Part shown: positions 6,769-60,603 of the stretch, piece after piece
Numbering within the stretch: position 1 is the first letter of the stretch
Layout of the letters: every line of letters begins with the position of its first letter
From: a virus
Taxonomy: Duplodnaviria; Caudoviricetes
Strand: one strand, 5' to 3'
IMG/VR virus record: IMGVR_UViG_3300032219_002522
Coordinates: 1 to 64,000 of that record
DNA: 64,000 nt
Notes under the pieces: model-generated
Told to the model about the DNA's origin: nothing
The model's database searches: none
What the model saw: only the letters and a program-made list of their open reading frames with translations
Made by a program: the position numbers and the translations under genes

Positions 6769-7285
6769 TTCTTCGGACAAGGAAGAAAAAGCGGATATTA
6801 TATTTTGTGATCTGGTGAAGATCAAAAAAGCTCTCGATTATTCTATCGAAAAAGAAATGGAGCACGAATTTATCTATAGTATGGTAAAATTTGCAAGAAA
6901 TAACCCAAATTCAACTATAGAGGAAATAATAAATATGTCTTTGAGAGATTGGAAATACTAATCCACTCTTCTCATTCTAACTAGATTTTTTCTAACTGAA
7001 TTATCCAGATCCTCATATGTTGTTTTTAGACCCTTATCGTAGATGTTTGAAAGAGACCTGGCTACTTTATTTTGATCAAGTATTATCTCCCATTTAGGGT
7101 CTTTCTCTTTATTGATTATTTCGTCAGCTATTTCTTTTCCTAGCTCTTCTATTTTCTTTTCGTATGTCTTCATAATATTTATAGTGAATCGAATGAATTT
7201 TATTTCATTATATTGTAGATTTTTTCTAAGAGTCTATTATCCGAAATAATTCTTAAATATTTAACTATAAATAAATAAAAATAAT

Positions 7286-47267: not shown

Positions 47268-47319
47268 AACTTTATCTATATTTGTAATATATTAATAAAA
47301 CGTTCTTTAACATACTTAT

Positions 47320-47539
47320 TTTCTTGAAGCGGTTTAAAGGGTTACTTCAAAAATACAATTCAATAAGCAACAGGATCGGTTCTCAGGTTCCGGTCTAAAT
47401 AAAGGCTAAATACTGTATTAATCTGAAAGCGCCAGAAATGGAACTAAAGGTAGATTCTCGGTTCAATTCACCTGACTAGAAATTCGGGGATGATTACCTC
47501 CCATAAGGAGGAACCACTCTTTAAAGATTTCTCAAGAAA
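47320..47539 (+). ncRNA. Y-RNA-like unit 1 (long form with ~170 nt internal domain)
   Basis: TTTCTTGA/TCAAGAAA and TTTAAAGGG/CTCTTTAAA stems; conserved GAAGCGG..TACTTCAAA..TTCTC; upstream of Ro60. Confidence 0.65.
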
Positions 47540-47559
47540 GTATTATTATAAAAATAAAC

Positions 47560-47629
47560 TCCGAAGCGGGAATGAGGGATACTTCAAATTATGAAAAACG
47601 AAAACAAACCCTCGTTTAATATTCTCGGA
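47560..47629 (+). ncRNA. Y-RNA-like unit 2
   Basis: TCCGA/TCGGA and GAATGAGGG/CCCTCGTTT stems; same conserved motifs. Confidence 0.65.
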
Positions 47630-47639
47630 TTTTAAATTT

Positions 47640-47720
47640 TATTCTGAAGCGGGATTGGGGGATACTTCAAAAATGATTGTTAGACACCAAAAAATCCACG
47701 AATCAAAAATTCTCAGAATA
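47640..47720 (+). ncRNA. Y-RNA-like unit 3
   Basis: TATTCTGA/TCAGAATA and GATTGGGGGAT/ATCCACGAATC stems; same conserved motifs. Confidence 0.65.
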
Positions 47721-51719: not shown

Positions 51720-52874
51720 ATGGCAAGAATATTATCATTTAGTGATTTTAACGAACTAAGCGAAGGCTATAACTTTAACGGAAGCGATTATGGTTTTAAG
51801 GATCTTTCTAGTTACGTTGAATTATCTGAATCAGAAATGCTTTCTTTATTTGACAACGAAATCTATGAAGCAGCTCCGAAAGGAAACACTGTACAAGGTG
51901 GATTATTTGATGTTAACGATAAGAACGTTTATAATGCAGTTAAAAACGTAAAAACTGCTGTTATCCAAGGTGCTCAATACACTTTCTTAACAATAGGTCA
52001 AGGTATTAAAGCTTATGCTGATGCACAAGTTAAAGCTGCAAAAGCTACCGGACAAGCTTTATTAAATTTAGCAAAATTTACTGGTAAAGTTGTTATATTT
52101 ACTGCTGCTGGACTTTATGTAGTAACTGAAGCAGTTGCTACTGGATTAATTTCTCTAGCAACATCTATATTTGGATATGCAAAAAAAGGAGCTATTGCAA
52201 TTGGTAGTACTCTTGTTACTGCATTAAAAAATGCTAACGATTACTTTAAAAAATTAGGCAAAGCAGTATTTAATACTATTAAAAATGATGCTTTAGCAGT
52301 TGCTAAAGTTTTTATGACAGGTTTATATAAAGTTGCTAATTTAGCTTCTCAAGCTGCTCAAGCAGTTGCATCTCTAACCGTTGCAGCATATAAGATAGCT
52401 AAAACAGCATTTAAATCTATTACTAACTTTGCAGCAGAGTGTATATACGGAGCAGCTAAAGCAGCTAAGACTGTTGCTATTAAAATAGGAAAAGCGGTTG
52501 GTGATTTTTATAATGCTTCTGTAAGTGTATTTAAATCTGCTAAGGATGCTATTGTAAAAACTATAAAAACTGGATTTAACGCAGTAGCAAATACTGTTAA
52601 AGCTGGTGTGCAAAAAACAGTTAAGGTTGCTGCTAAAATAAAAACGGGAGTTGGAAATGCTCTTAAGGCCGCACAGAATAAAATCGTTAATACCGGAAAA
52701 GAAATACTTTCAGTTGGTAGCGCTATATTTAGGGGTCTTTGGGATCACGAGATTTACCAAGGAACTGACGAAGATATTTTTGAATCCTATGTTATTGTTG
52801 AGGGACAAAGATACTACGTGCCAGTTGATTCATACGATGATTACGATCTAGATATTTTCGGATCACAGTATTAA
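51720..52874 (+). CDS. Ala/Lys-rich amphipathic-helix protein, probably abundant or virion-associated
   Basis: Strong GCT/GCA/GTT codon bias, GATATATA at 51698, MARILSFSDF motif. Confidence 0.7.
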   Translation: MARILSFSDFNELSEGYNFNGSDYGFKDLSSYVELSESEMLSLFDNEIYEAAPKGNTVQGGLFDVNDKNVYNAVKNVKTAVIQGAQYTFLTIGQGIKAYADAQVKAAKATGQALLNLAKFTGKVVIFTAAGLYVVTEAVATGLISLATSIFGYAKKGAIAIGSTLVTALKNANDYFKKLGKAVFNTIKNDALAVAKVFMTGLYKVANLASQAAQAVASLTVAAYKIAKTAFKSITNFAAECIYGAAKAAKTVAIKIGKAVGDFYNASVSVFKSAKDAIVKTIKTGFNAVANTVKAGVQKTVKVAAKIKTGVGNALKAAQNKIVNTGKEILSVGSAIFRGLWDHEIYQGTDEDIFESYVIVEGQRYYVPVDSYDDYDLDIFGSQY

Positions 52875-53352
52875 TAGAAACAAAACCTAAAAACATACCT
52901 ATTAAATGACCCCCGTGGGATATTCCATCGGGGTCATTTAGTGTAACGACCTCTCCTATCAATATAATAGCCAAAATTGGTATAAGGAATTTATTTGATA
53001 ATAGTAATCTTGTTAAAAGAAAATACACCAATCCAGATATACCTATAGAAATTTGAACTCCGAAAAAAGTAAGTATAAAAGTAAAGGTCTGAACGACTAT
53101 AGTTATTAATACCATCTGCTTTATATCATATTTGTTACCACTATGAATAAGTAACAAAAATATTGCTATTATATTAAATAGAAAATGATCTAAAGATTGG
53201 TGAATAAATCCACTAATAAATGGTAAGGATATAGCTAAATCAGCATTTCCCCCAAGTATAAGCATCATAATTAATCCTAGCGGGTATGCTAATACGCATA
53301 CTCCTAATACCTTTAATGTTTCTATAGCAGATCTTTTTAAATTTTCTTTCAT
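52792..53352 (-). CDS. Rhomboid-family intramembrane serine protease
   Basis: FIHQSLDHFLFN, IGISG catalytic Ser motif, ISHGGHLIG catalytic His, several TM helices. Confidence 0.75.
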   Translation of the reverse strand: MKENLKRSAIETLKVLGVCVLAYPLGLIMMLILGGNADLAISLPFISGFIHQSLDHFLFNIIAIFLLLIHSGNKYDIKQMVLITIVVQTFTFILTFFGVQISIGISGLVYFLLTRLLLSNKFLIPILAIILIGEVVTLNDPDGISHGGHLIGMFLGFVSINTVIRKYLDRNHRMNQLARSIFVPQQ

Positions 53353-53438
53353 TTTTTTGTTTTGTAATACAATAGTAGAAAACCCAAAGAAATATAAAAA
53401 AAGATTCTAAATCATTTTTTATATTAAATAAAAAGGTC

Positions 53439-53474
53439 TATATTTGTGAAACAAAACAAAAGGAACGATATATA
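53439..53474 (+). promoter_or_regulatory. Tandem promoters of tRNA array 1 (host-type TATATTTG and phage GATATATA)
   Basis: TATATTTG 53439-53446 matches the Bacteroidota -7 element TAnnTTTG; GATATATA 53467-53474; same layout at 59121-59156. Confidence 0.65.
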
Positions 53475-53482
53475 ACAGATAT

Positions 53483-53557
53483 ATGAAAAACCTAAACAAC
53501 ATATTACCTTTAATATTAAGACCGTCGATAAGACGATCTCTAAAGGTCCTGTGTTAG
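53483..53557 (+). CDS. Leader peptide of tRNA array 1 (MKNLNNILPLILRPSIRRSLKVLC)
   Basis: Codons 7-17 ATA TTA CCT TTA ATA TTA AGA CCG TCG ATA AGA match the downstream tRNAs; 3' end overlaps the antiterminator. Confidence 0.8.
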   Translation: MKNLNNILPLILRPSIRRSLKVLC

Positions 53558-53612
53558 TTTTCAATATATACTAAACTAAAAAACCGGGACCTTTAAAAGC
53601 CCCGGTTTTTTT
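53541..53612 (+). promoter_or_regulatory. Attenuator 1 (antiterminator/terminator pair)
   Basis: TAAAGGTCCTG (53541-51) pairs with CGGGACCTTTA (53585-95), which overlaps the terminator AAAAAACCGGG..CCCGGTTTTTTT (53578-53612). Confidence 0.8.
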
Positions 53613-53642
53613 ATGGTCTTTGAAATATTGAATTATTAAATT

Positions 53643-53729
53643 AGAGAGTTGCCAGAGTCAGGCTTAATGGATCAGTCTTGAAAACTGACGTAGTGAAAGC
53701 TACCAGGGGTTCGAATCCCTCACTCTCTG
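53643..53729 (+). tRNA. tRNA-Ser(TGA)
   Basis: AGAGAGT/ACTCTCT acceptor, TCAGT-CTTGAAA-ACTGA, long variable arm, GTTCGAATC. Confidence 0.93.
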
Positions 53730-53734
53730 CTCAT

Positions 53735-53806
53735 GGGTCTATAGTTAAAGGGATATAACCCTAGCCTTCTAAGCTTGTATTCCTGGTTCGAGTCCAGGTG
53801 GACCTA
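53735..53806 (+). tRNA. tRNA-Arg(TCT)
   Basis: Anticodon loop CTTCTAA; CCTGG-TTCGAGT-CCAGG T arm. Confidence 0.9.
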
Positions 53807-53973
53807 CACAAAGCCCTCTGCCTAGCGCTGGGTATGGATCGAAGATAGAATAGGCCTCTACACCGTAGACAGGTAGGATACCTCGGTATTCTTTAATGAT
53901 ATGCACACTTATTCTCTAAATCGTGGGTTAGCACAGTTTGTATGTTCTGGGGATATTTAAAGACATACAATTT

Positions 53974-54046
53974 CGGGATGTAGATCAGTTGGTAGATCGC
54001 CTGGTTTGGGGCCAGAAGGCCCTAGGTTCGAGTCCTAGTATTCCGA
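53974..54046 (+). tRNA. tRNA-Pro(TGG)
   Basis: CGGGATG/TATTCCG acceptor, loop TTTGGGG, CTAGG-TTCGAGT-CCTAG. Confidence 0.88.
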
Positions 54047-54053
54047 CAGCCAC

Positions 54054-54127
54054 AGAGGCGTAGCTCAATTGGTTAGAGCACATGCCTTATACGCATGCGG
54101 TCACGAGTTCGACTCTCGTCGTCTCTA
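54054..54127 (+). tRNA. tRNA-Ile(TAT)
   Basis: AGAGGCG/CGTCTCT acceptor, CATGC-CTTATAC-GCATG anticodon arm. Confidence 0.88.
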
Positions 54128-54130
54128 CTT

Positions 54131-54204
54131 GGTCCCTTAGCTCAGTAGGTTAGAGCAACTGACTCATAATCAGTAGGTCCACGGTTCGAGCCCGTGAGGG
54201 ACCA
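54131..54204 (+). tRNA. tRNA(CAT), probably Ile2 (lysidine type) rather than Met
   Basis: ACTGA-CTCATAA-TCAGT; GGTCCCT acceptor with C4:G69 and C5:G68 as in bacterial Ile2. Confidence 0.85.
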
Positions 54205-54219
54205 CAAAATTAATAATCT

Positions 54220-54300
54220 GCCTGGGTGGTGAAATTGGTAGACACGTTCGGCTTAAGATCGAATGCGAAATGCGTGAGGGTTCGAGTCCCTCCTCGGGTA
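54220..54300 (+). tRNA. tRNA-Leu(TAA)
   Basis: TTCGG-CTTAAGA-TCGAA, type II variable arm, GAGGG-TTCGAGT-CCCTC. Confidence 0.92.
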
Positions 54301-54305
54301 CATAT

Positions 54306-54408
54306 ATAAGAGTGGCGGAAGCGAGATCATTTATGATCCGATGGAGAGACGCTAGGGTGTCATGCCAGAGAACGAAAATTCATGTTGGTTCAAGTCCAAC
54401 CTCTTGTA
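54306..54408 (+). ncRNA. tRNA-like RNA with a hairpin inserted in the D loop and a degenerate anticodon arm
   Basis: ATAAGAG/CTCTTGT acceptor, TGGCGGAA..GACGC D arm containing GATCAT-TT-ATGATC, perfect GTTGG-TTCAAGT-CCAAC T arm. Confidence 0.6.
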
Positions 54409-54421
54409 CTTTTTAGATTTT

Positions 54422-54973
54422 TTACTTAACCTCTTTAATTCTGAAGTATCCTCGGTGATCGGTTTTACCTGGTTCTACACCATCTTCGAATTTACAATAT
54501 CCAGTAGAATTAAAGAAGTTCCATTCTTCTCTTCTACCTTTACTAAGTTTATCCTGTGGCATTAAAGATCTATTATATTCTTGATTTTCTTGGTTAATTC
54601 TCTTATACATTCCATTATAAAATGTAGATGTGCTAAGTAAATTCGTAGCTTCTTCCATTAATCTTCGATTGATATTATAGTCAAATATAGCCTCATGAAT
54701 AGAAATCTCTGAAATGTCTCTTCTATAGCTAATCCATTGTGATATAACTCCACCATAATTATATGGTGTATAACCTAAATCCCCTACGTAAAAAAGATTA
54801 AAATATGGAGAATTCTCTTTGCTGTGATCGAACAACCTTATGTTAGTATTAAAATGTGGTACAGTTCCACTGAATTCTTTCATTCTATTATAGAATTCAG
54901 GCAGTATCTCTAATGTTATTGATGTCGGATTATTATTTGCATCAAATCCCTCAAATAGCTTAATGTGTTTCAT
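54422..54973 (-). CDS. Hypothetical protein with MKHIKLFEGF motif
   Basis: ORF track; GATATATA on the minus strand at 54979-54986. Confidence 0.7.
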   Translation of the reverse strand: MKHIKLFEGFDANNNPTSITLEILPEFYNRMKEFSGTVPHFNTNIRLFDHSKENSPYFNLFYVGDLGYTPYNYGGVISQWISYRRDISEISIHEAIFDYNINRRLMEEATNLLSTSTFYNGMYKRINQENQEYNRSLMPQDKLSKGRREEWNFFNSTGYCKFEDGVEPGKTDHRGYFRIKEVK

Positions 54974-55019
54974 ATGATTATATATCTAAATATCTAAATA
55001 AATGTGATATATAATGTAT

Positions 55020-56633
55020 ATGAAAAAGTACATAAAACTATTCGAGGAGTTTGTTTTTGAATACCTATCAAAAGCTTCTAAAATAATTAATAATATTAGC
55101 GAATTACCTAAAGTTGGAGAACCTGTAGTCAAACAGGATTTTAGCGAGGACGGTATAGTAGCTATTGATTGGAAGAACTTAGTTTTTATTAGATCCTCAG
55201 ATGAGCTTCCCACTCTTCGAGGTAAAGATATGCTACTTCACACAGGAAAAGCTCTAAAGAGCGTAGGTTTCAATGACTCTTTCGAGAAGTACCTCAAGAA
55301 GAAGTACAATAATGACATCAACGACCCTGAAAATACATGGATAAAGGAAGAACCTCACTACAAGGACTTTGAAACTTTTCGAAAATGGATGATAGATGCT
55401 CATTCCACCAGATGGACAAAACACTTTACGTTGAACCACGTAGTTTCTTCTCACTCTGGTGGAAACTGGACAGGTAACAAGTACATCTACTTGATGCCCG
55501 GAGAATCTATGATCAAGACTAACGGAAAACCTGCTAGTCTCTTTGCTATAGACACTTACTATGACAAGAGCTTGGTAGTGTCTGACGGTACAGTAGTTCT
55601 TTACTTACCTGAAGCAGATGAAGAAGTTAGGGAGTTTGTGGCTAAAACAGCTGAGAACAGAAACCAAATTTATTTCTTGAAGATAAAAGGAGATATTGTC
55701 GATTACGAGCTGAAAGATGCCAACGATGCGATAGAAGCTATGGGATACACTACGTTTAGTGGGGGCTCTCACTACTCAACCGAGTATAATCTTGACAGTG
55801 AGATGAGAGATTTACAAGACAGGGAAGACATCAGAAAAAGTGGACTACACTGGGGTTCTAAATGGTACAATCTTGAGAAGGGACAAACACACTGGGAAGA
55901 TTTTATGAGTCTAGGGAAGATAAAAAGATCCCAGTATAAAAACTTGAACATCAAGAAAGAAGAACAGGAGTACCAAGAACATAGAGGATTCAGCAAAGAT
56001 TACTTGAAAGAGTGCGTGAAATCGTTATCAAAATCTCATTCGGAAGATCCTTTCGACAAAGAAGTTGTGCGCAACTACTTACGATACATGACGATGGTTT
56101 GCAAGATCATAGCTACTCCTAAATTTTCAATGAAACAGTTCGATGAGACTGCAGGTTTCAGTTGGAATAATTCGGATGAACACGCGTTAAGTATGGATTC
56201 ATGGGATCCGAATAAATTAGAATCTGAGTTAGATAGAGATTTTGAGGCTCACCCTGAATACACAAGACCTGAACGATACGGTTACGGAACTCCAGCACAA
56301 AAAGAAGTTATGGCTAAAAGGAGCAATGAATACATAGGGGAGTATTACTATTTCAATAAGTACCTACTGTTCGACATAAAGCAAGCGTTTAAAACTTCAT
56401 GGATAGGAAAGTTCCTCCAGGATAACCGTAAAGAACTAGAAATTTTACAGGATATTATTATTAAAAAGAAAGAAAGCCCAGAATGGGAAGAAGCTGCCGG
56501 TAAGATAGCTGATAGATTAGTAGACAGTCCAGTATTTCCTGATCTTTTAAACATTGGATCATATCTAATAGCAATGAATAGAGGAGCTAAAAAGTACGGA
56601 TATAAGGACGTTTATGACATGCTTGAATTATAA
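55020..56633 (+). CDS. Large hypothetical protein with MKKYIKLFEEF motif
   Basis: ORF track; GATATATA at 55006. Confidence 0.7.
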   Translation: MKKYIKLFEEFVFEYLSKASKIINNISELPKVGEPVVKQDFSEDGIVAIDWKNLVFIRSSDELPTLRGKDMLLHTGKALKSVGFNDSFEKYLKKKYNNDINDPENTWIKEEPHYKDFETFRKWMIDAHSTRWTKHFTLNHVVSSHSGGNWTGNKYIYLMPGESMIKTNGKPASLFAIDTYYDKSLVVSDGTVVLYLPEADEEVREFVAKTAENRNQIYFLKIKGDIVDYELKDANDAIEAMGYTTFSGGSHYSTEYNLDSEMRDLQDREDIRKSGLHWGSKWYNLEKGQTHWEDFMSLGKIKRSQYKNLNIKKEEQEYQEHRGFSKDYLKECVKSLSKSHSEDPFDKEVVRNYLRYMTMVCKIIATPKFSMKQFDETAGFSWNNSDEHALSMDSWDPNKLESELDRDFEAHPEYTRPERYGYGTPAQKEVMAKRSNEYIGEYYYFNKYLLFDIKQAFKTSWIGKFLQDNRKELEILQDIIIKKKESPEWEEAAGKIADRLVDSPVFPDLLNIGSYLIAMNRGAKKYGYKDVYDMLEL

Positions 56634-57088
56634 TTAGAATAATATGATTAAAAAACTATCATATTTCGATATATCCGGAATAATTACAAAGCAATATCCT
56701 GAATATACTCTAATAATAGGTAAAAAATCTGAGGATATATTTAATTATTTTGCCGTAGATGAGTTACATGGACTATATAGAGATAAATGTCATGATAATC
56801 CAAATAACGCTTATATAGCTGGTTTATGTAACGTTTATCCTAATGATCATAATAAATTCTTTATCTTTCTAAATTCGATTAGATTAGATAACGGATACAA
56901 GGACGTCCTTTTAATAATGCACGAGTGTATGCACATGTCTCTAGAGATTCATGGTACAGATTTGACATATAGAGATGGAAATGACATAGAAGAAATTGCT
57001 ATAACTTGGGCAGAGAAGAATTCTGAATCAATTTACGAATTCATTATGTCCAAAGGAATATTATAAAAAATAGGATATATAATGGGTC

Positions 57089-57460
57089 ATGCACGATCAC
57101 ATTAAAATATCCGGACTTGGTATAGAAATATACAAAAATGATATACCAGGGGTAAGATGGTATAAAGCTCAGTCTTTTATTAATGATCTTGGAAATGGAT
57201 GGAGATTGCCTTCATTAAAAGAACTTGCTTTAATAAAAACACTAAGAGATCTTGGTGGCATAGGTAGATTTCCTACCGAATATTCAGATTTTTCTGATTC
57301 GTATTATTGGAGTAATGAGGAAGGCGAGGTTACTAGTATAAGAACACAAGGGAAAGATGGGAAAAGTAACTATGCTTACTTTTTTGATATGTCGGAGGGA
57401 ACTTCTTCACATAATAAAAAATCATACGATCTTAGGGTTAGGTTTGTCAGAGATATATAG
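57089..57460 (+). CDS. DUF1566/Lcl-like domain protein
   Basis: W..A...GWRLPSLKEL...YYWS...AY...RVRFVR. Confidence 0.7.
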   Translation: MHDHIKISGLGIEIYKNDIPGVRWYKAQSFINDLGNGWRLPSLKELALIKTLRDLGGIGRFPTEYSDFSDSYYWSNEEGEVTSIRTQGKDGKSNYAYFFDMSEGTSSHNKKSYDLRVRFVRDI

Positions 57461-57463
57461 AAT

Positions 57464-58315
57464 ATGCCAACAACAAGACCCTTTGCATATAATCCAACAC
57501 AATCAACAATTTCAGGAACTACAAATGTAGGTACATTATGCGTAGGTGTATCTGCTTTAAACTATGGTGCAAATCCAGGAGGACTAACTTGGTGGATGGG
57601 TCCGGACGAGGATAATTCTTATGTAATATCTAAAGATGTACCAACTTCAAACTTTCCTACCCCAGTAGGAAATGTAGGCACTGTACAATTTTGGAGATGC
57701 TCTAATACAGATGAAGCTTTTAGAAGTACAGTACAAATAATAAGCGGTATCACTCAAGCTTCCGCTTTAGCAGCTAGTGATTGGTTAACAACAAATGGAT
57801 ATTGGACTAATCGGAATCCATATCTTGCAGGTTTATATAAAACAACTTACTCCGGATATTTTGCTGATAATGTTAGTTTCTTTGCAACTGCTACTCCTGC
57901 ATCAGTAGGGGGAAATCCAGCTACATCAGTACAAACAACATCTATATTTGAACCCGCTCAAAATGATGGCGAGAATTTTAGTTGTCAATGGCTAGGTTAT
58001 TTTAAACCAACAACTTCTGAAACATATACATTCTACACTTCAAGTGACGACGCTTCGTATGTGTGGATAGGTTCAAATGCACAGACAGGGTTTACAACTA
58101 CAAATTCAACAGTTAATAACGGGGGATTACATGGGACACAAGAACGTTCAGGTTCTATTGCATTAACTGCTGGTACATATTATCAAATAAGAATACAATT
58201 TGGTGAACTAAGTGGAGGTGACGTAATGACTTTTAGTTATTCAACCCCTACTATTACAAAAACTACCAATGTAACAGGACTAGTATTTTATAATCCGTCC
58301 ACTAATGGATTCTAA
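57464..58315 (+). CDS. PA14-domain protein (possible virion adhesin)
   Basis: NFS.QW.GYF.P...TYTFYTSSDDAS.VWI, NNGGLHG..ERSG.I.L.AG.YY.IRI.FGE..GG. Confidence 0.85.
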   Translation: MPTTRPFAYNPTQSTISGTTNVGTLCVGVSALNYGANPGGLTWWMGPDEDNSYVISKDVPTSNFPTPVGNVGTVQFWRCSNTDEAFRSTVQIISGITQASALAASDWLTTNGYWTNRNPYLAGLYKTTYSGYFADNVSFFATATPASVGGNPATSVQTTSIFEPAQNDGENFSCQWLGYFKPTTSETYTFYTSSDDASYVWIGSNAQTGFTTTNSTVNNGGLHGTQERSGSIALTAGTYYQIRIQFGELSGGDVMTFSYSTPTITKTTNVTGLVFYNPSTNGF

Positions 58316-58350
58316 TTCAATAATTAGATATATACAATAAAATCAAAGAA

Positions 58351-58629
58351 ATGAAGCATATTAAAAATTATCAGGCTAAAAATTCTAAAATTAACGAGGG
58401 ATTTTGGGATTCTCTTTTTGGTAGACCCACTGTTGATGATGCTGCTCACGATCAAATGAGAGGTCAAGGATGGAGTCACAGAGGTAAAGATGAAGAAAAC
58501 TACATCATGTTCCAAGGGCAAAAGTTCTATCCCGATCAAATCCAATATGATGATGTTTATTCAACTAAACAAATACCAAGAGTTGAAGGGGGTATGTTAA
58601 TCGTAGCTAATCCAGCTTGGAATTTGTAA
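58351..58629 (+). CDS. Hypothetical protein with MKHIKNY..INE motif
   Basis: ORF track; GATATATA at 58327. Confidence 0.65.
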   Translation: MKHIKNYQAKNSKINEGFWDSLFGRPTVDDAAHDQMRGQGWSHRGKDEENYIMFQGQKFYPDQIQYDDVYSTKQIPRVEGGMLIVANPAWNL

Positions 58630-59120
58630 AAAAAATCAGAAATCTTTTTTTTCTTATTATTTTGATCTCTATATTTGGATCCTAATTAAAAAACTTTTAC
58701 AATGAAATTAAACAAAATGAGCAGGGTTACTATGAAGGTAGCTCACGAGAATCCAGATGCTAGCGTGAACTTCACAGCGGTAGGGATAGGAAAAGATCAA
58801 AGAGAAGCAGCTATCTTCGCATTAGGATCCTTCTTAAATGTTATGAATGGTATTAGTGAGGAAGGAATTTCGGATTACAATGAAGCTTTAGAAATGGTAA
58901 ATGGTCAATATTCGGAAGCTGAAATAGTATCGTTTATGGAAAAACAATTAGAAAGCAATTCAGGTTCTTTCTTTAATGCTTACGAATCTACTGATGTTGA
59001 TTATTCATGGGATGAAGTAGAAGGTGAAGAAGCTGGAGGATTAATCCAAGAAATGGAAATAATCGAAGAGGAATATTAAAAAATATCAAAGAAACATTTT
59101 TTTATTCAATAAAAAGATTG

Positions 59121-59156
59121 TACATTTGTGAAACAATATCAGAAAAGAGATATATA
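59121..59156 (+). promoter_or_regulatory. Tandem promoters of tRNA array 2 (TACATTTG and GATATATA)
   Basis: TACATTTG-TGAAACAA mirrors TATATTTG-TGAAACAA at 53439; GATATATA at 59149-59156. Confidence 0.65.
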
Positions 59157-59167
59157 AACAAGAAACA

Positions 59168-59275
59168 ATGAAAAACTGTAGTAAACATAACATCATTCGC
59201 ATGAACAGTCAGATTAATGGCTGCTATCAAACGGTGGCGTTTTGGGCTAAGGGAAAAGATCCCGATCGAAGCTAA
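59168..59275 (+). CDS. Leader peptide of tRNA array 2 (MKNCSKHNIIRMNSQINGCYQTVAFWAKGKDPDRS)
   Basis: Contains cognate codons for all seven downstream anticodons; last codons and stop overlap the antiterminator. Confidence 0.8.
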   Translation: MKNCSKHNIIRMNSQINGCYQTVAFWAKGKDPDRS

Positions 59276-59336
59276 TACAAGAAATCATATTTAGATATTT
59301 TGAAAAGGCTTTGATTAACTTCAAAGCCTTTTTTTT
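59264..59336 (+). promoter_or_regulatory. Attenuator 2 (antiterminator/terminator pair)
   Basis: GATCGAAGCT (59264-73) pairs with GGCTTTGATT (59307-16), the 5' arm of terminator AAAAGGCTTTGA-TTAACT-TCAAAGCCTTTTTTTT. Confidence 0.78.
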
Positions 59337-59359
59337 GTTCTTTGACATATTGGAAATTG

Positions 59360-59440
59360 GGAGCGGTAGCAAAGTTGGTCAATGCACCGGACTGAAAATC
59401 CGGCCATGTGGGTTCGAAGGTTCGAGTCCTTCTACTTCCA
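59360..59440 (+). tRNA. tRNA-Phe(GAA), chimeric with a foreign 3' end; possibly non-functional
   Basis: CCGGA-CTGAAAA-TCCGG arm; two successive GGTTCGA motifs; poorly paired acceptor GGAGCGG/TACTTCC. Confidence 0.7.
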
Positions 59441-59445
59441 CAAAA

Positions 59446-59518
59446 GGTCCCGTAGTTCAATGGATTAGAATGGAACACTACGGATGTTCTGATCCTGGTT
59501 CGAATCCAGGCGGGGTCT
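59446..59518 (+). tRNA. tRNA-Arg(ACG)
   Basis: GAACA-CTACGGA-TGTTC; CCTGG-TTCGAAT-CCAGG. Confidence 0.9.
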
Positions 59519-59529
59519 CAAACAAATAA

Positions 59530-59603
59530 GGTCGCGTGGCCGAGTGGTTAGGCGCTAGTCTGCAAAACTAGTAACACTGGTTCAATTCCAGTCACGACCT
59601 CCA
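59530..59603 (+). tRNA. tRNA-Cys(GCA)
   Basis: CTAGT-CTGCAAA-ACTAG; U73 discriminator and encoded CCA. Confidence 0.93.
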
Positions 59604-59747
59604 AAAAATAAAATAATAAAGCCTATGGATGAAAAAGTGGTAGTAAAAGGAAGTTTCCCCTCTAGTAAAGAAAACTTAAAAAGAGAAACATTAAAATTTA
59701 AACACGCCGAAAGATTAATAAAAAGAATTAAAAGGCTAATTAACAAA

Positions 59748-59833
59748 GGAAAGTAATCTCAGATGGTGACGGGGCTCGCCTGCTAAGCGAAGCGTACCTT
59801 AATTGGTATTTGGTTCGATTCCAATTCTTTCCG
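59748..59833 (+). tRNA. tRNA-Ser(GCT)
   Basis: TCGC-CTGCTAA-GCGA, long variable arm, G73. Confidence 0.87.
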
Positions 59834-59839
59834 CAATAT

Positions 59840-59913
59840 TGACATATAGCTCAGTTGGTTAGAGCGTTGATCTGATACGTCAAAGGCCGAAGGTTCGAAT
59901 CCTTCTATGTCAC
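59840..59913 (+). tRNA. tRNA-Ile(GAT)
   Basis: TGACATA/TATGTCA acceptor; TTGAT-CTGATAC-GTCAA. Confidence 0.88.
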
Positions 59914-59918
59914 CCCAC

Positions 59919-59991
59919 GCCTTTGTAGCTCAGCTGGTAGAGCGCTTCACTTGTAATGAAGTTGTCGCAGGTTCGATTCCTGTCAAAGGCT
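59919..59991 (+). tRNA. tRNA-Thr(TGT)
   Basis: GCCTTTG/CAAAGGC acceptor; CTTCA-CTTGTAA-TGAAG. Confidence 0.93.
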
Positions 59992-59996
59992 CATAT

Positions 59997-60069
59997 TTTC
60001 CCCTCGTCTAATTGGCGGGACATGTGGTTTTGGACCAGAAGAGTCCAGGTTCGAATCCTTGGAGGAAAA
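59997..60069 (+). tRNA. tRNA-Gln(TTG)
   Basis: Gln-type D arm TCGTCTAATTGGCGGGAC; loop TTTTGGA; several stem mismatches. Confidence 0.8.
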
Positions 60070-60111
60070 CAAAAAGATAAATACAATGTCCAGTATGTAA
60101 AATTTAAGATT

Positions 60112-60603
60112 ATGAAAGTTCTAGTATTAAATAACGACTTTACGCCAGTGAGTGTTACCAATATAGCTCGGGGATTCAAACTTGTATATAAAGGTAAAGC
60201 CGAAGTATTAGAACATGACGAATCTAATCCTATTGTTACAGATCAACAAGTTTATAAAAGACCATCAGTTATAAGGCTTTTAAAGTATGTTGTTCTTCCA
60301 TTTAAGAAGCTAAAACCCACTAGGGAGAACATATTTAAGAGAGACGAATTAAAGTGCTTATATTGTGATGCTACAAAGCAGCTTACAATAGATCACGTAA
60401 TCCCTAGATCTAGAGGAGGTATTAATACATGGGAGAATCTAGCAACTTGCTGTTCTAGATGCAACGGTAAGAAAGGAGATAGAACTCCAGAAGAAGCAGG
60501 AATGAAGATGCGTCACAAACCATTTAAACCTGGATATGGATATTTTATCCGGAATTTTTCTAAAGGAATGGATGTTTGGACATCATATCTTCCAGAATAT
60601 TAA
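60112..60603 (+). CDS. HNH endonuclease (McrA/HNH_5-like) at the end of the tRNA array
   Basis: VLVLN..F.P, PSVIRL, R.NIF.RD...C.YC, LTIDHVIPRSRGG..TWENL..CC..CN..KG.RTP.EA.M; start refined to 60112. Confidence 0.92.
   Translation: MKVLVLNNDFTPVSVTNIARGFKLVYKGKAEVLEHDESNPIVTDQQVYKRPSVIRLLKYVVLPFKKLKPTRENIFKRDELKCLYCDATKQLTIDHVIPRSRGGINTWENLATCCSRCNGKKGDRTPEEAGMKMRHKPFKPGYGYFIRNFSKGMDVWTSYLPEY

Follow-up and report, generated by a model that had tools for sequence, protein, structure and literature searches.

Two arrays of tRNA genes in a 64,000-nt stretch of phage DNA are each preceded by a short open reading frame (ORF) written in the codons that the tRNAs of its own array read, and both units are probably ribosome-mediated attenuators that sense tRNA isoacceptors and feed back on the transcription of their own tRNA genes. 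The stretch, referred to here as the window, comprises positions 1 to 64,000 of the IMG/VR virus record IMGVR_UViG_3300032219_002522 (Duplodnaviria; Caudoviricetes) and is the first 64 kb of a 116-kb contig, over the whole of which the codon background and the ORF scans were computed. The contig has a G+C content of 33%, and because its completeness is estimated at 42%, the genome of this freshwater giant phage is probably larger than 250 kb. All 12 tRNA genes that ARAGORN calls in the contig fall in the two arrays. Relatives were gathered by a protein search and three exact-pattern scans of viral contigs and by one scan of metagenome contigs, which together recovered about 35 related viral and metagenome loci, chiefly from freshwater samples.

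Organization of the two units

The two units share a common order, composed of the promoter layout, a short ORF, a GC-rich hairpin followed by a T run, a boxA-like 12-mer, and the first tRNA gene. Unit 1 contains the following features:

53437-53475 (+): promoter/5' region, with a Bacteroidota-type TAnnTTTG box and then GATATATAA, 7 nt before the ATG
53483-53557 (+): leader ORF 1, 24 codons, of which codons 6-16 are all read by array-1 tRNAs
53498-53512 (+): segment 1 (AACATA and ACCTTTA), predicted by the minimum free energy (MFE) fold to pair with segment 2 and the sequence flanking it
53541-53551 (+): segment 2, the candidate antiterminator strand, within the last leader codons; 11 bp with 53585-53595
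53581-53612 (+): intrinsic terminator, with arms at 53581-53588 and 53601-53608, then a T run
53615-53626 (+): boxA-like element, 3' of the terminator and 5' of the first tRNA, kept in all relatives
53643-54301 (+): tRNA array 1 (family A), with Ser-TGA, Arg-TCT, Pro-TGG, Ile-TAT, a CAT tRNA and Leu-TAA (ARAGORN)

The corresponding features of unit 2 are:

59119-59157 (+): promoter/5' region, with the layout seen in unit 1
59168-59275 (+): leader ORF 2, 35 codons; 29 of 34 are read by the full array C described below, none by array A
59264-59273 (+): segment 2, the candidate antiterminator strand, in the last codons and the stop; pairs with 59307-59316
59304-59336 (+): intrinsic terminator, with arms at 59304-59314 and 59321-59331, then a T run
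59337-59348 (+): boxA-like element, assigned by sequence likeness to rrn boxA
59359-60070 (+): tRNA array 2 (family C, reduced), with Phe-GAA, Arg-ACG, Cys-GCA, a Ser-GCT-like gene, Ile-GAT, Thr-TGT and Gln-TTG

Both leaders open with ATG AAA AAC, and the 34-nt layout ATTTGTGAAACAA-N12-GATATATAA is found at only two sites in the 116-kb contig, in unit 1 and at 59124, where 0.01 are expected. The element GATATATAA by itself occurs 15 times in the contig, and 13 of these 15 sites sit 3-22 nt 5' of a same-strand start codon, those of both leaders included. At least 10 start codons of long ORFs are preceded by the element at this distance, and the start signature of the leaders is thus that of ordinary genes. 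Other sites in the window include 3986, 5512, 20556, 34652, 50096, and 57074. The element may be a phage-specific promoter or initiation signal. TAnnTTTG boxes are known from promoters of Bacteroides and Flavobacterium, and judged from these boxes the host is probably a member of the Bacteroidota.

The boxA-like element ends 16 nt before the first tRNA in unit 1 and 10 nt before it in unit 2, and the corresponding distances from the end of the T run are 30 nt and 22 nt. No second promoter is apparent within the ~25-30 nt 5' of the first tRNA. This layout agrees with a sequence-only reading of the window made before the present analysis, which took the two leaders for independent sensors: on sequence evidence, each belongs to a codon-specific unit of its own, complete with promoter, terminator, and antiterminator pairing.

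Codon concordance of leaders and arrays

The sequence-only reading also described a division of the genetic code between the two leaders, and a recount reproduces it in full. Isoleucine is written as ATA three times in leader 1 and as ATC, ATT, and ATT in leader 2, serine as TCG and TCT in leader 1 and as AGT, AGT, and AGC in leader 2, and arginine as AGA twice plus CGA in leader 1 and as CGC and CGA in leader 2, and leader 1 has six leucine codons where leader 2 has none. As that reading stated, leader 2 avoids codons that are dominant in the phage, ATA making up 58% of the Ile codons of the contig and AGA 76% of its Arg codons. In the same background, TTA accounts for 42% of Leu codons, CGA and CGC together for 4% of Arg codons, and AGY for 25% of Ser codons.

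Decoding sets for the arrays were fixed beforehand from standard wobble rules, in a broad version and in a strict version in which U34 pairs with A and G only. Leader 1 has 12 own-array and two other-array codons among 23, and leader 2 has 14 and one among 34. The own/other split across the leaders gives a Fisher P of 2.2e-5 with broad wobble and 6.7e-5 with strict wobble. In the +1 frame, used as a control, the own/other counts are 1/5 for leader 1 and 9/7 for leader 2 (P 0.35). The concordance that had been proposed from the letters is thus beyond chance, as tested here.

Each leader is also an outlier among the short ORFs of the contig. In leader 1, 11 own-array codons follow one another without a break, compared with at most five in any other of 637 ATG-started ORFs of 15-50 codons, and leader 2 is the sole ORF lacking any array-1 codon among 150 short ORFs of at least 30 codons. 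The eight Ile, Ser, and Arg codons of leader 2 are all own-array codons (ATY, AGY, and CGH only), an outcome with an exact P of 7.8e-6 under the synonymous usage of the phage and of 2.7e-3 under uniform usage. This all-own outcome is the exact figure relied on, and the product of the per-amino-acid P values serves as an index only. Given the peptide, the synonymous choice in leader 2 has a P of 7e-6 under phage codon usage, and the P values for over-representation of regulatory codons span 1e-3 to 1e-6 depending on the null. The isoacceptor claim rests mainly on leader 2, the signal in leader 1 being one of run composition and clustering.

Three leader and array families in related phages

The related loci carry three arrays, termed A, B, and C, and every one of them is preceded by a promoter, a leader ORF, a terminator, and a boxA-like element of its own. 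Array A corresponds to array 1 of the window, and its six tRNAs stand in the same order in the relatives with a complete array A. Array B is composed of Glu-TTC, Asp-GTC, an initiator-like CAT tRNA, and Leu-TAG. The full array C contains 15 tRNAs called by ARAGORN plus the Ser-GCT-like gene, and specifies Phe, Lys, Trp, Arg-ACG, Cys, Ser-GCT, Ile-GAT, Val, Asn, Tyr, Gly, Ala, Met, His, Thr, and Gln. Taken together, arrays A, B, and C cover all 20 amino acids, and in a 153-kb relative every tRNA found sits in one of them, behind the three leaders.

Own-array codons make up 57%, 29%, and 85% of leaders A, B, and C, respectively, compared with 20%, 18%, and 57% of the genome. Leader B contains a run of seven Glu, Asp, and Leu-CTN codons ahead of an array that encodes Glu, Asp, and Leu-TAG tRNAs. 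Its Leu codons are CTN in 39 cases and TTA in eight, the TTA codons lying outside the run. This third pair extends to leucine the earlier claim that the leaders divide the code by isoacceptor and not by amino acid.

In leader C, every one of the 16 tRNAs of the array has a cognate codon (16/16, P 2.8e-5), and codons for Leu and Glu are absent. Only two of its codons, Asp at positions 31 and 33 near the ORF end, are read by tRNAs of another array. Three further codons lie outside the own set: CCC at position 32; GGC at position 17, for which standard wobble leaves no reader among the listed tRNAs; and ATG at position 11, which is readable by all three arrays. In nine leader C variants, Ile is ATY in 23/23 cases, Ser is AGY in 28/28, and Arg is CGH in 17/18. 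Leader 2 is 93% identical across 10 relatives, and the leader C peptide is near-invariant. In the run of leader A, ATA, TTA, AGA, and TCN are the only codons used among the isoacceptors that are split between arrays, and the codons foreign to its set are found at positions 2-5 and close to the end of the ORF.

Reduction and content of array 2

Three features within array 2 bear on how its relation to leader 2 is read:

59359-59441 (+): chimeric tRNA-Phe, 83 nt, with a 5' part from Phe and, beyond a junction in the T arm, the 3' end of a later tRNA
59625-59756 (+): ORF for a basic protein of 43 amino acids (aa), between Cys-GCA and the Ser-GCT-like tRNA, its stop overlapping the tRNA acceptor stem
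59747-59833 (+): Ser-GCT-like tRNA gene, scoring 38 bits with the Rfam tRNA-Sec model, below the cut-off

The window lacks unit B, and its array 2 is an array C cut from 16 to seven tRNAs. Alignment with the full array C places the first deletion from ~40 nt into tRNA-Phe to just before Arg-ACG, with loss of Lys and Trp. The 83-nt chimera arose because this deletion joined the Phe 5' part to the 3' end of a later tRNA, and the chimeric tRNA is probably non-functional. The second deletion is bounded by the start of Val and the end of Thr and removed Val, Asn, Tyr, Gly, Ala, Met, and His. A separate Logan assembly of the probable source run (X1) is identical to the window over 54295-60300, the reduced array 2 included, so that the reduction is not the artefact of one assembler, though the two assemblies share the same underlying data. 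DNA contigs from other runs gave fragmentary relatives and many uninformative tRNA cross-joints, and a search for RNA runs that contain the locus found none.

The Ser-GCT-like gene, which ARAGORN does not call, is near-invariant in ten relatives in which the sequence 5' of the gene varies, and it shows a compensatory change in the T stem. On the strength of this near-invariance and compensatory change, the gene is accepted as real. The 43-aa ORF has no match in Pfam. Its sequence varies among relatives, and the frame is open in the two in which it was followed to its end, L003 and its duplicate L016.

Leader 2 of the window is virtually identical to the leaders that stand before full arrays. 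The sequence-only reading held that leader 2 is in step with its array, which is true in part: 14 of its 34 codons match the present array, and 29 of 34 match the ancestral array. The same reading took the breadth of leader 2 for a sensor of broad tRNA loss, and here it has to be abandoned, as this breadth mirrors the ancestral 16-tRNA array still found in relatives. Because the leader is unchanged ahead of full 16-tRNA arrays and the array in the window has been cut to seven, the breadth, as judged from sequence comparison, is inherited and not designed for broad tRNA loss. The connection to abortive-infection tRNases of the host that the sequence-only reading proposed is speculation.

Proposed switch and folding of the leader RNAs

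In the mechanism that we favor, the promoter would drive transcription of the leader ORF, then the terminator, the boxA-like element, and the tRNA array. Segment 2, at the 3' end of the leader ORF, is complementary to the terminator 5' arm and could sequester it. A fast ribosome would reach the last codons or the stop and cover segment 2, allowing the terminator to fold and transcription to stop before the tRNAs, and a ribosome delayed at a hungry codon upstream would leave segment 2 free, allowing the antiterminator to form and the polymerase to enter the array. The sequence itself shows the ORFs, their codon concordance, the terminators, the complementary segments, and the conservation of these in relatives; translation of the leaders, ribosome stalling, the switch itself, and a role for the boxA-like element are what we infer here from the DNA. 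The simplest view would be a race, in which a leader finished in time leads to termination and any delay leads to read-through. Such a race agrees with leaders that consist almost entirely of sensor codons and have their foreign codons where stalling would be useless. The sensor codons would be ATA, TTA, AGA, CCN, and TCN in unit 1, and ATY, AGY, CGH, the Cys, Gln, Thr, and Phe codons, and those for the rest of the ancestral 16 in unit 2. Because each leader is written in the isoacceptor codons of its own array, each array would be placed under a separate negative feedback on decoding capacity. By analogy with rrn operons, the boxA-like element may load antitermination factors for transcription of the structured array.

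In unit 1, the antiterminator target (53585-53595) is formed by the inner part of the terminator 5' arm and the loop. Among nine sequences, 94% of the cells of antiterminator A are paired, and one compensatory change, A-U to U-A, supports the antiterminator specifically because one of its sides lies in the terminator loop. For comparison, 98.9% of alignment cells are paired in the unit 1 terminator and 90.6% in the segment 1 pairing. In unit 2, the antiterminator complementarity extends over 10 bp. Among relatives, the stem of terminator C carries a compensatory change from T-A to C-G, and both variants of the arm (C or T) are matched by the leader strand.

Ribosome positions were modeled by masking 30 nt and computing the MFE structure of the full-length RNA. 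The free RNA of unit 1 is predicted to fold into the terminator. A ribosome whose A site is at any of codons 5-14 shifts the prediction to the antiterminator, the terminator being absent, and from codon 17 onward the terminator returns. Nascent transcripts were modeled by ending the RNA just short of the terminator 3' arm, and here each of the three leaders is predicted to sequester the 5' arm except when the ribosome is on the last few codons.

Evidence against attenuation, and alternative explanations

Several results weigh against isoacceptor-specific attenuation. The synonymous choice in leader 1, given its peptide, does not differ from the genome background (P 0.30), which is explained by the preference of the phage itself for those codons, and the conserved CGA of leader 1 belongs to a tRNA of the other array. 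The window has lost nine of the 16 tRNAs that leader 2 mirrors, and the leader has not tracked this loss. In the full-length MFE folds, unit 2 switches only with a ribosome near codon 21, and the case for a leader 2 switch would thus rest on the kinetic model of the nascent transcript. The free RNA of leader B already prefers the antiterminator, and its MFE switching is irregular. Finally, covariation in the terminator, the anti-antiterminator, and the antiterminator is not above that of shuffled alignments, because the relatives are close and nearly all pairs are invariant. The alignments therefore argue for the antiterminator by conservation rather than by covariation.

The strongest alternative is that the attenuators report general translational status, such as amino-acid supply, charging, or ribosome availability, with the codon match a by-product of how the tRNAs are grouped. 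Stalling depends on aminoacyl-tRNA, so that amino-acid starvation would trigger the switch too, and the composition of leader 2, which samples 18 amino acids and in the window keeps codons for nine lost tRNAs, is what such a sensor would also show. An amino-acid sensor would, however, have no reason to part ATA from ATY, TCN from AGY, AGA from CGH, and TTA from CTN between leaders, and this separation is present in all leader C variants, at the counts given above, and in the runs of leaders A and B. Because of this isoacceptor split, we take the tRNA species to be the intended signal, though amino-acid starvation would act as well, and we regard a general sensor as unlikely.

The variation of leader A bears on the two weaker alternatives. 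There are 16 distinct ORF variants among 29 loci, with a reading frame that is constant through codon 18 and an ATG that is invariant in nine aligned sequences. Codons 2-5 vary freely, and codons 7-14 interchange TTA, ATA, TCA, TCG, TCT, and CCT. These swaps within the run are radical for the peptide (Leu/Ile/Ser) and yet remain inside the array A decoding set. Eight of 11 derived codon states fall inside the set, compared with an expected fraction of 0.33 for random single-base changes (P 0.008), and two more are changes to the C-ending codon of the same box. In the region 3' of codon 18, a 1-nt indel results in an ORF of either 19 or 24 codons, and in either case the stop lies on or just after segment 2. 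These patterns point to selection on the codons of leader A, rather than on the peptide or the RNA alone. In relative L013, the sole relative without the ATG, the start codon is replaced by ATA, and array A has decayed: Ser-TGA is no longer called, and Arg-TCT, Ile-TAT, and Glu-TTC are left.

A reading of low probability is that the ORFs are untranslated, that the hairpins stop transcription partially and constitutively or serve in processing or stabilizing the tRNA precursor, and that the codon pattern is coincidental or structural. Structural constraint is real, with much of the leader sequence nucleotide-invariant and located in predicted helices, and covariation does not separate the two models. 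Against this stands a signal that is frame-specific, replicated in three unrelated leader sequences, and retained through non-synonymous swaps in the most variable part of leader A. In addition, the gene-start motif is one common to real genes, and the single exception to the invariant ATG of leader A, L013, has a decayed array. Still more remote is the idea that the ORFs encode functional micropeptides with terminators of their own, unrelated to tRNA control, which the near-invariant leader C peptide would suit, but which conflicts with the tolerance of leader A for Leu/Ile/Ser swaps, varied N termini, and loss of the last five residues by frameshift, and would leave the arrays without a driver and the anticodon match unexplained.

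Other features of the arrays and their surroundings

The CAT tRNA of array 1 may be a tRNA-Ile2, for which its presumed likeness to E. coli ileX and the C4-G69 and C5-G68 pairs would speak. After Leu-TAA, a conserved RNA of ~100 nt (54306-54407, +) has a 7-bp acceptor-like stem, a canonical T arm, and an internal hairpin that covaries among relatives. It has no recognisable anticodon arm and is called by neither ARAGORN nor Rfam. An insert of 166 nt lies between Arg-TCT and Pro-TGG (53808-53973, +). It is present in most relatives, is absent from L005 and L012, and has no match in Rfam.

Array 2 is adjoined by an HNH endonuclease gene at 60112-60603 (+) of the window (Pfam HNH_5, E 5e-17). In relatives L004, L014, L018, and L019, endonuclease-like ORFs interrupt the arrays, and in L004 one of them stands between leader A and array A. 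The presence of endonuclease genes at the arrays is consistent with how often these are rearranged. In L012, the most divergent relative, a further array contains a tRNA with the anticodon TTA (7095-7166), a putative ochre suppressor, and no leader is obvious within 330 nt of this array.

On the opposite strand 5' of unit 1, a gene at 52792-53352 (-) encodes a Rhomboid domain (E 1e-6), an uncommon find in a phage. Elsewhere in the window, at 47270-47680 (+), a TAnnTTTG box stands directly before a boxA-like 12-mer (47302-47313) with neither a leader ORF nor a terminator. The 12-mer is followed by ~360 nt of non-coding sequence with three GAAGCGG...TACTTCAAA repeats, and no Rfam family was found for this 47.3-kb non-coding region.

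Comparison with known systems

The architecture is that of a classical multivalent leader-peptide attenuator, and what sets the phage units apart is the tRNA target, the isoacceptor resolution, and a breadth of 16 specificities in one leader. Similar to the enterobacterial attenuators (thr, ilvGMEDA, trp, his, leu, and pheA), both units combine a codon-rich short ORF with an intrinsic terminator and an overlapping antiterminator set by ribosome position, and sensing of several amino acids by one leader is known from thr (Thr and Ile) and ilvGMEDA (Ile, Leu, and Val). Unlike in those systems, the targets in the phage are tRNAs, the product is the sensed molecule, codon choice splits isoacceptors between units, one leader samples 16 specificities, and there is no sequence homology. 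The Rfam Thr_leader model (RF00506) scores 28 bits at 53490-53615, against a cut-off of 55 (E 0.044), an architectural resemblance only. To our knowledge, all described leader-peptide attenuators control enzymes of amino-acid biosynthesis or aminoacylation; the regulated genes here are tRNAs and the one 43-aa ORF and fall outside that definition.

The nearest attenuator acting on the translation apparatus is that of E. coli pheST, with the pheM leader, which is read out through decoding by tRNA-Phe. It differs in that it controls a synthetase, responds to one amino acid, has no isoacceptor logic, and includes no tRNA gene. T-box riboswitches likewise sense a specific tRNA by its anticodon and operate a terminator/antiterminator switch. 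In contrast to the phage units, they use a specifier codon and the T-box sequence to bind the uncharged tRNA itself, involve no translation, and control synthetase or amino-acid genes, and no match to the T-box model (RF00230) was found in 53300-60300 at E values up to 1. As in the boxA/Nus antitermination of rrn operons, the boxA-like 12-mer of the phage heads non-coding RNA operons, in both units and at the 47302 promoter. It differs from the rrn element in its location downstream of an attenuator, and the likeness between the two is one of sequence alone.

Compared with 50,697 GenBank phage records, leaders 1 and 2 gave chance matches only, and arrays 1 and 2 gave generic tRNA similarity only. 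No description of attenuator-controlled tRNA genes was found in the full-text literature, a search that left most subscription journals outside its reach.

Implications

Phage tRNA arrays are usually seen as static patches for codon usage or as spares against host defences that cleave tRNA, and, as far as we know, how phages control their own tRNA genes is largely unknown. A leader-peptide attenuator with the sensed tRNA as its output would be a direct homeostat for decoding capacity, through which the phage would top up decoders that are exhausted by its AT-rich genes or destroyed by host anticodon nucleases. The isoacceptor split between the leaders is the sole feature that tells sensing of tRNA species from sensing of amino acids, and it leads to the prediction that synonymous recoding of a leader should re-address its unit to the tRNAs of another array. 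If the model is true, no earlier attenuator would have been one that measures tRNA species in place of amino acids, and the leaders would provide natural, portable, and compact sensors of individual tRNA isoacceptors. The deletion-bearing window would also illustrate how sensor and array pairs decay. With somewhat less assurance than for the attenuators themselves, we lean towards the view that the tRNA genes of the phage are separately gated regulons, each with an isoacceptor-resolved feedback sensor, in which case a textbook mechanism would gain a new class of target.

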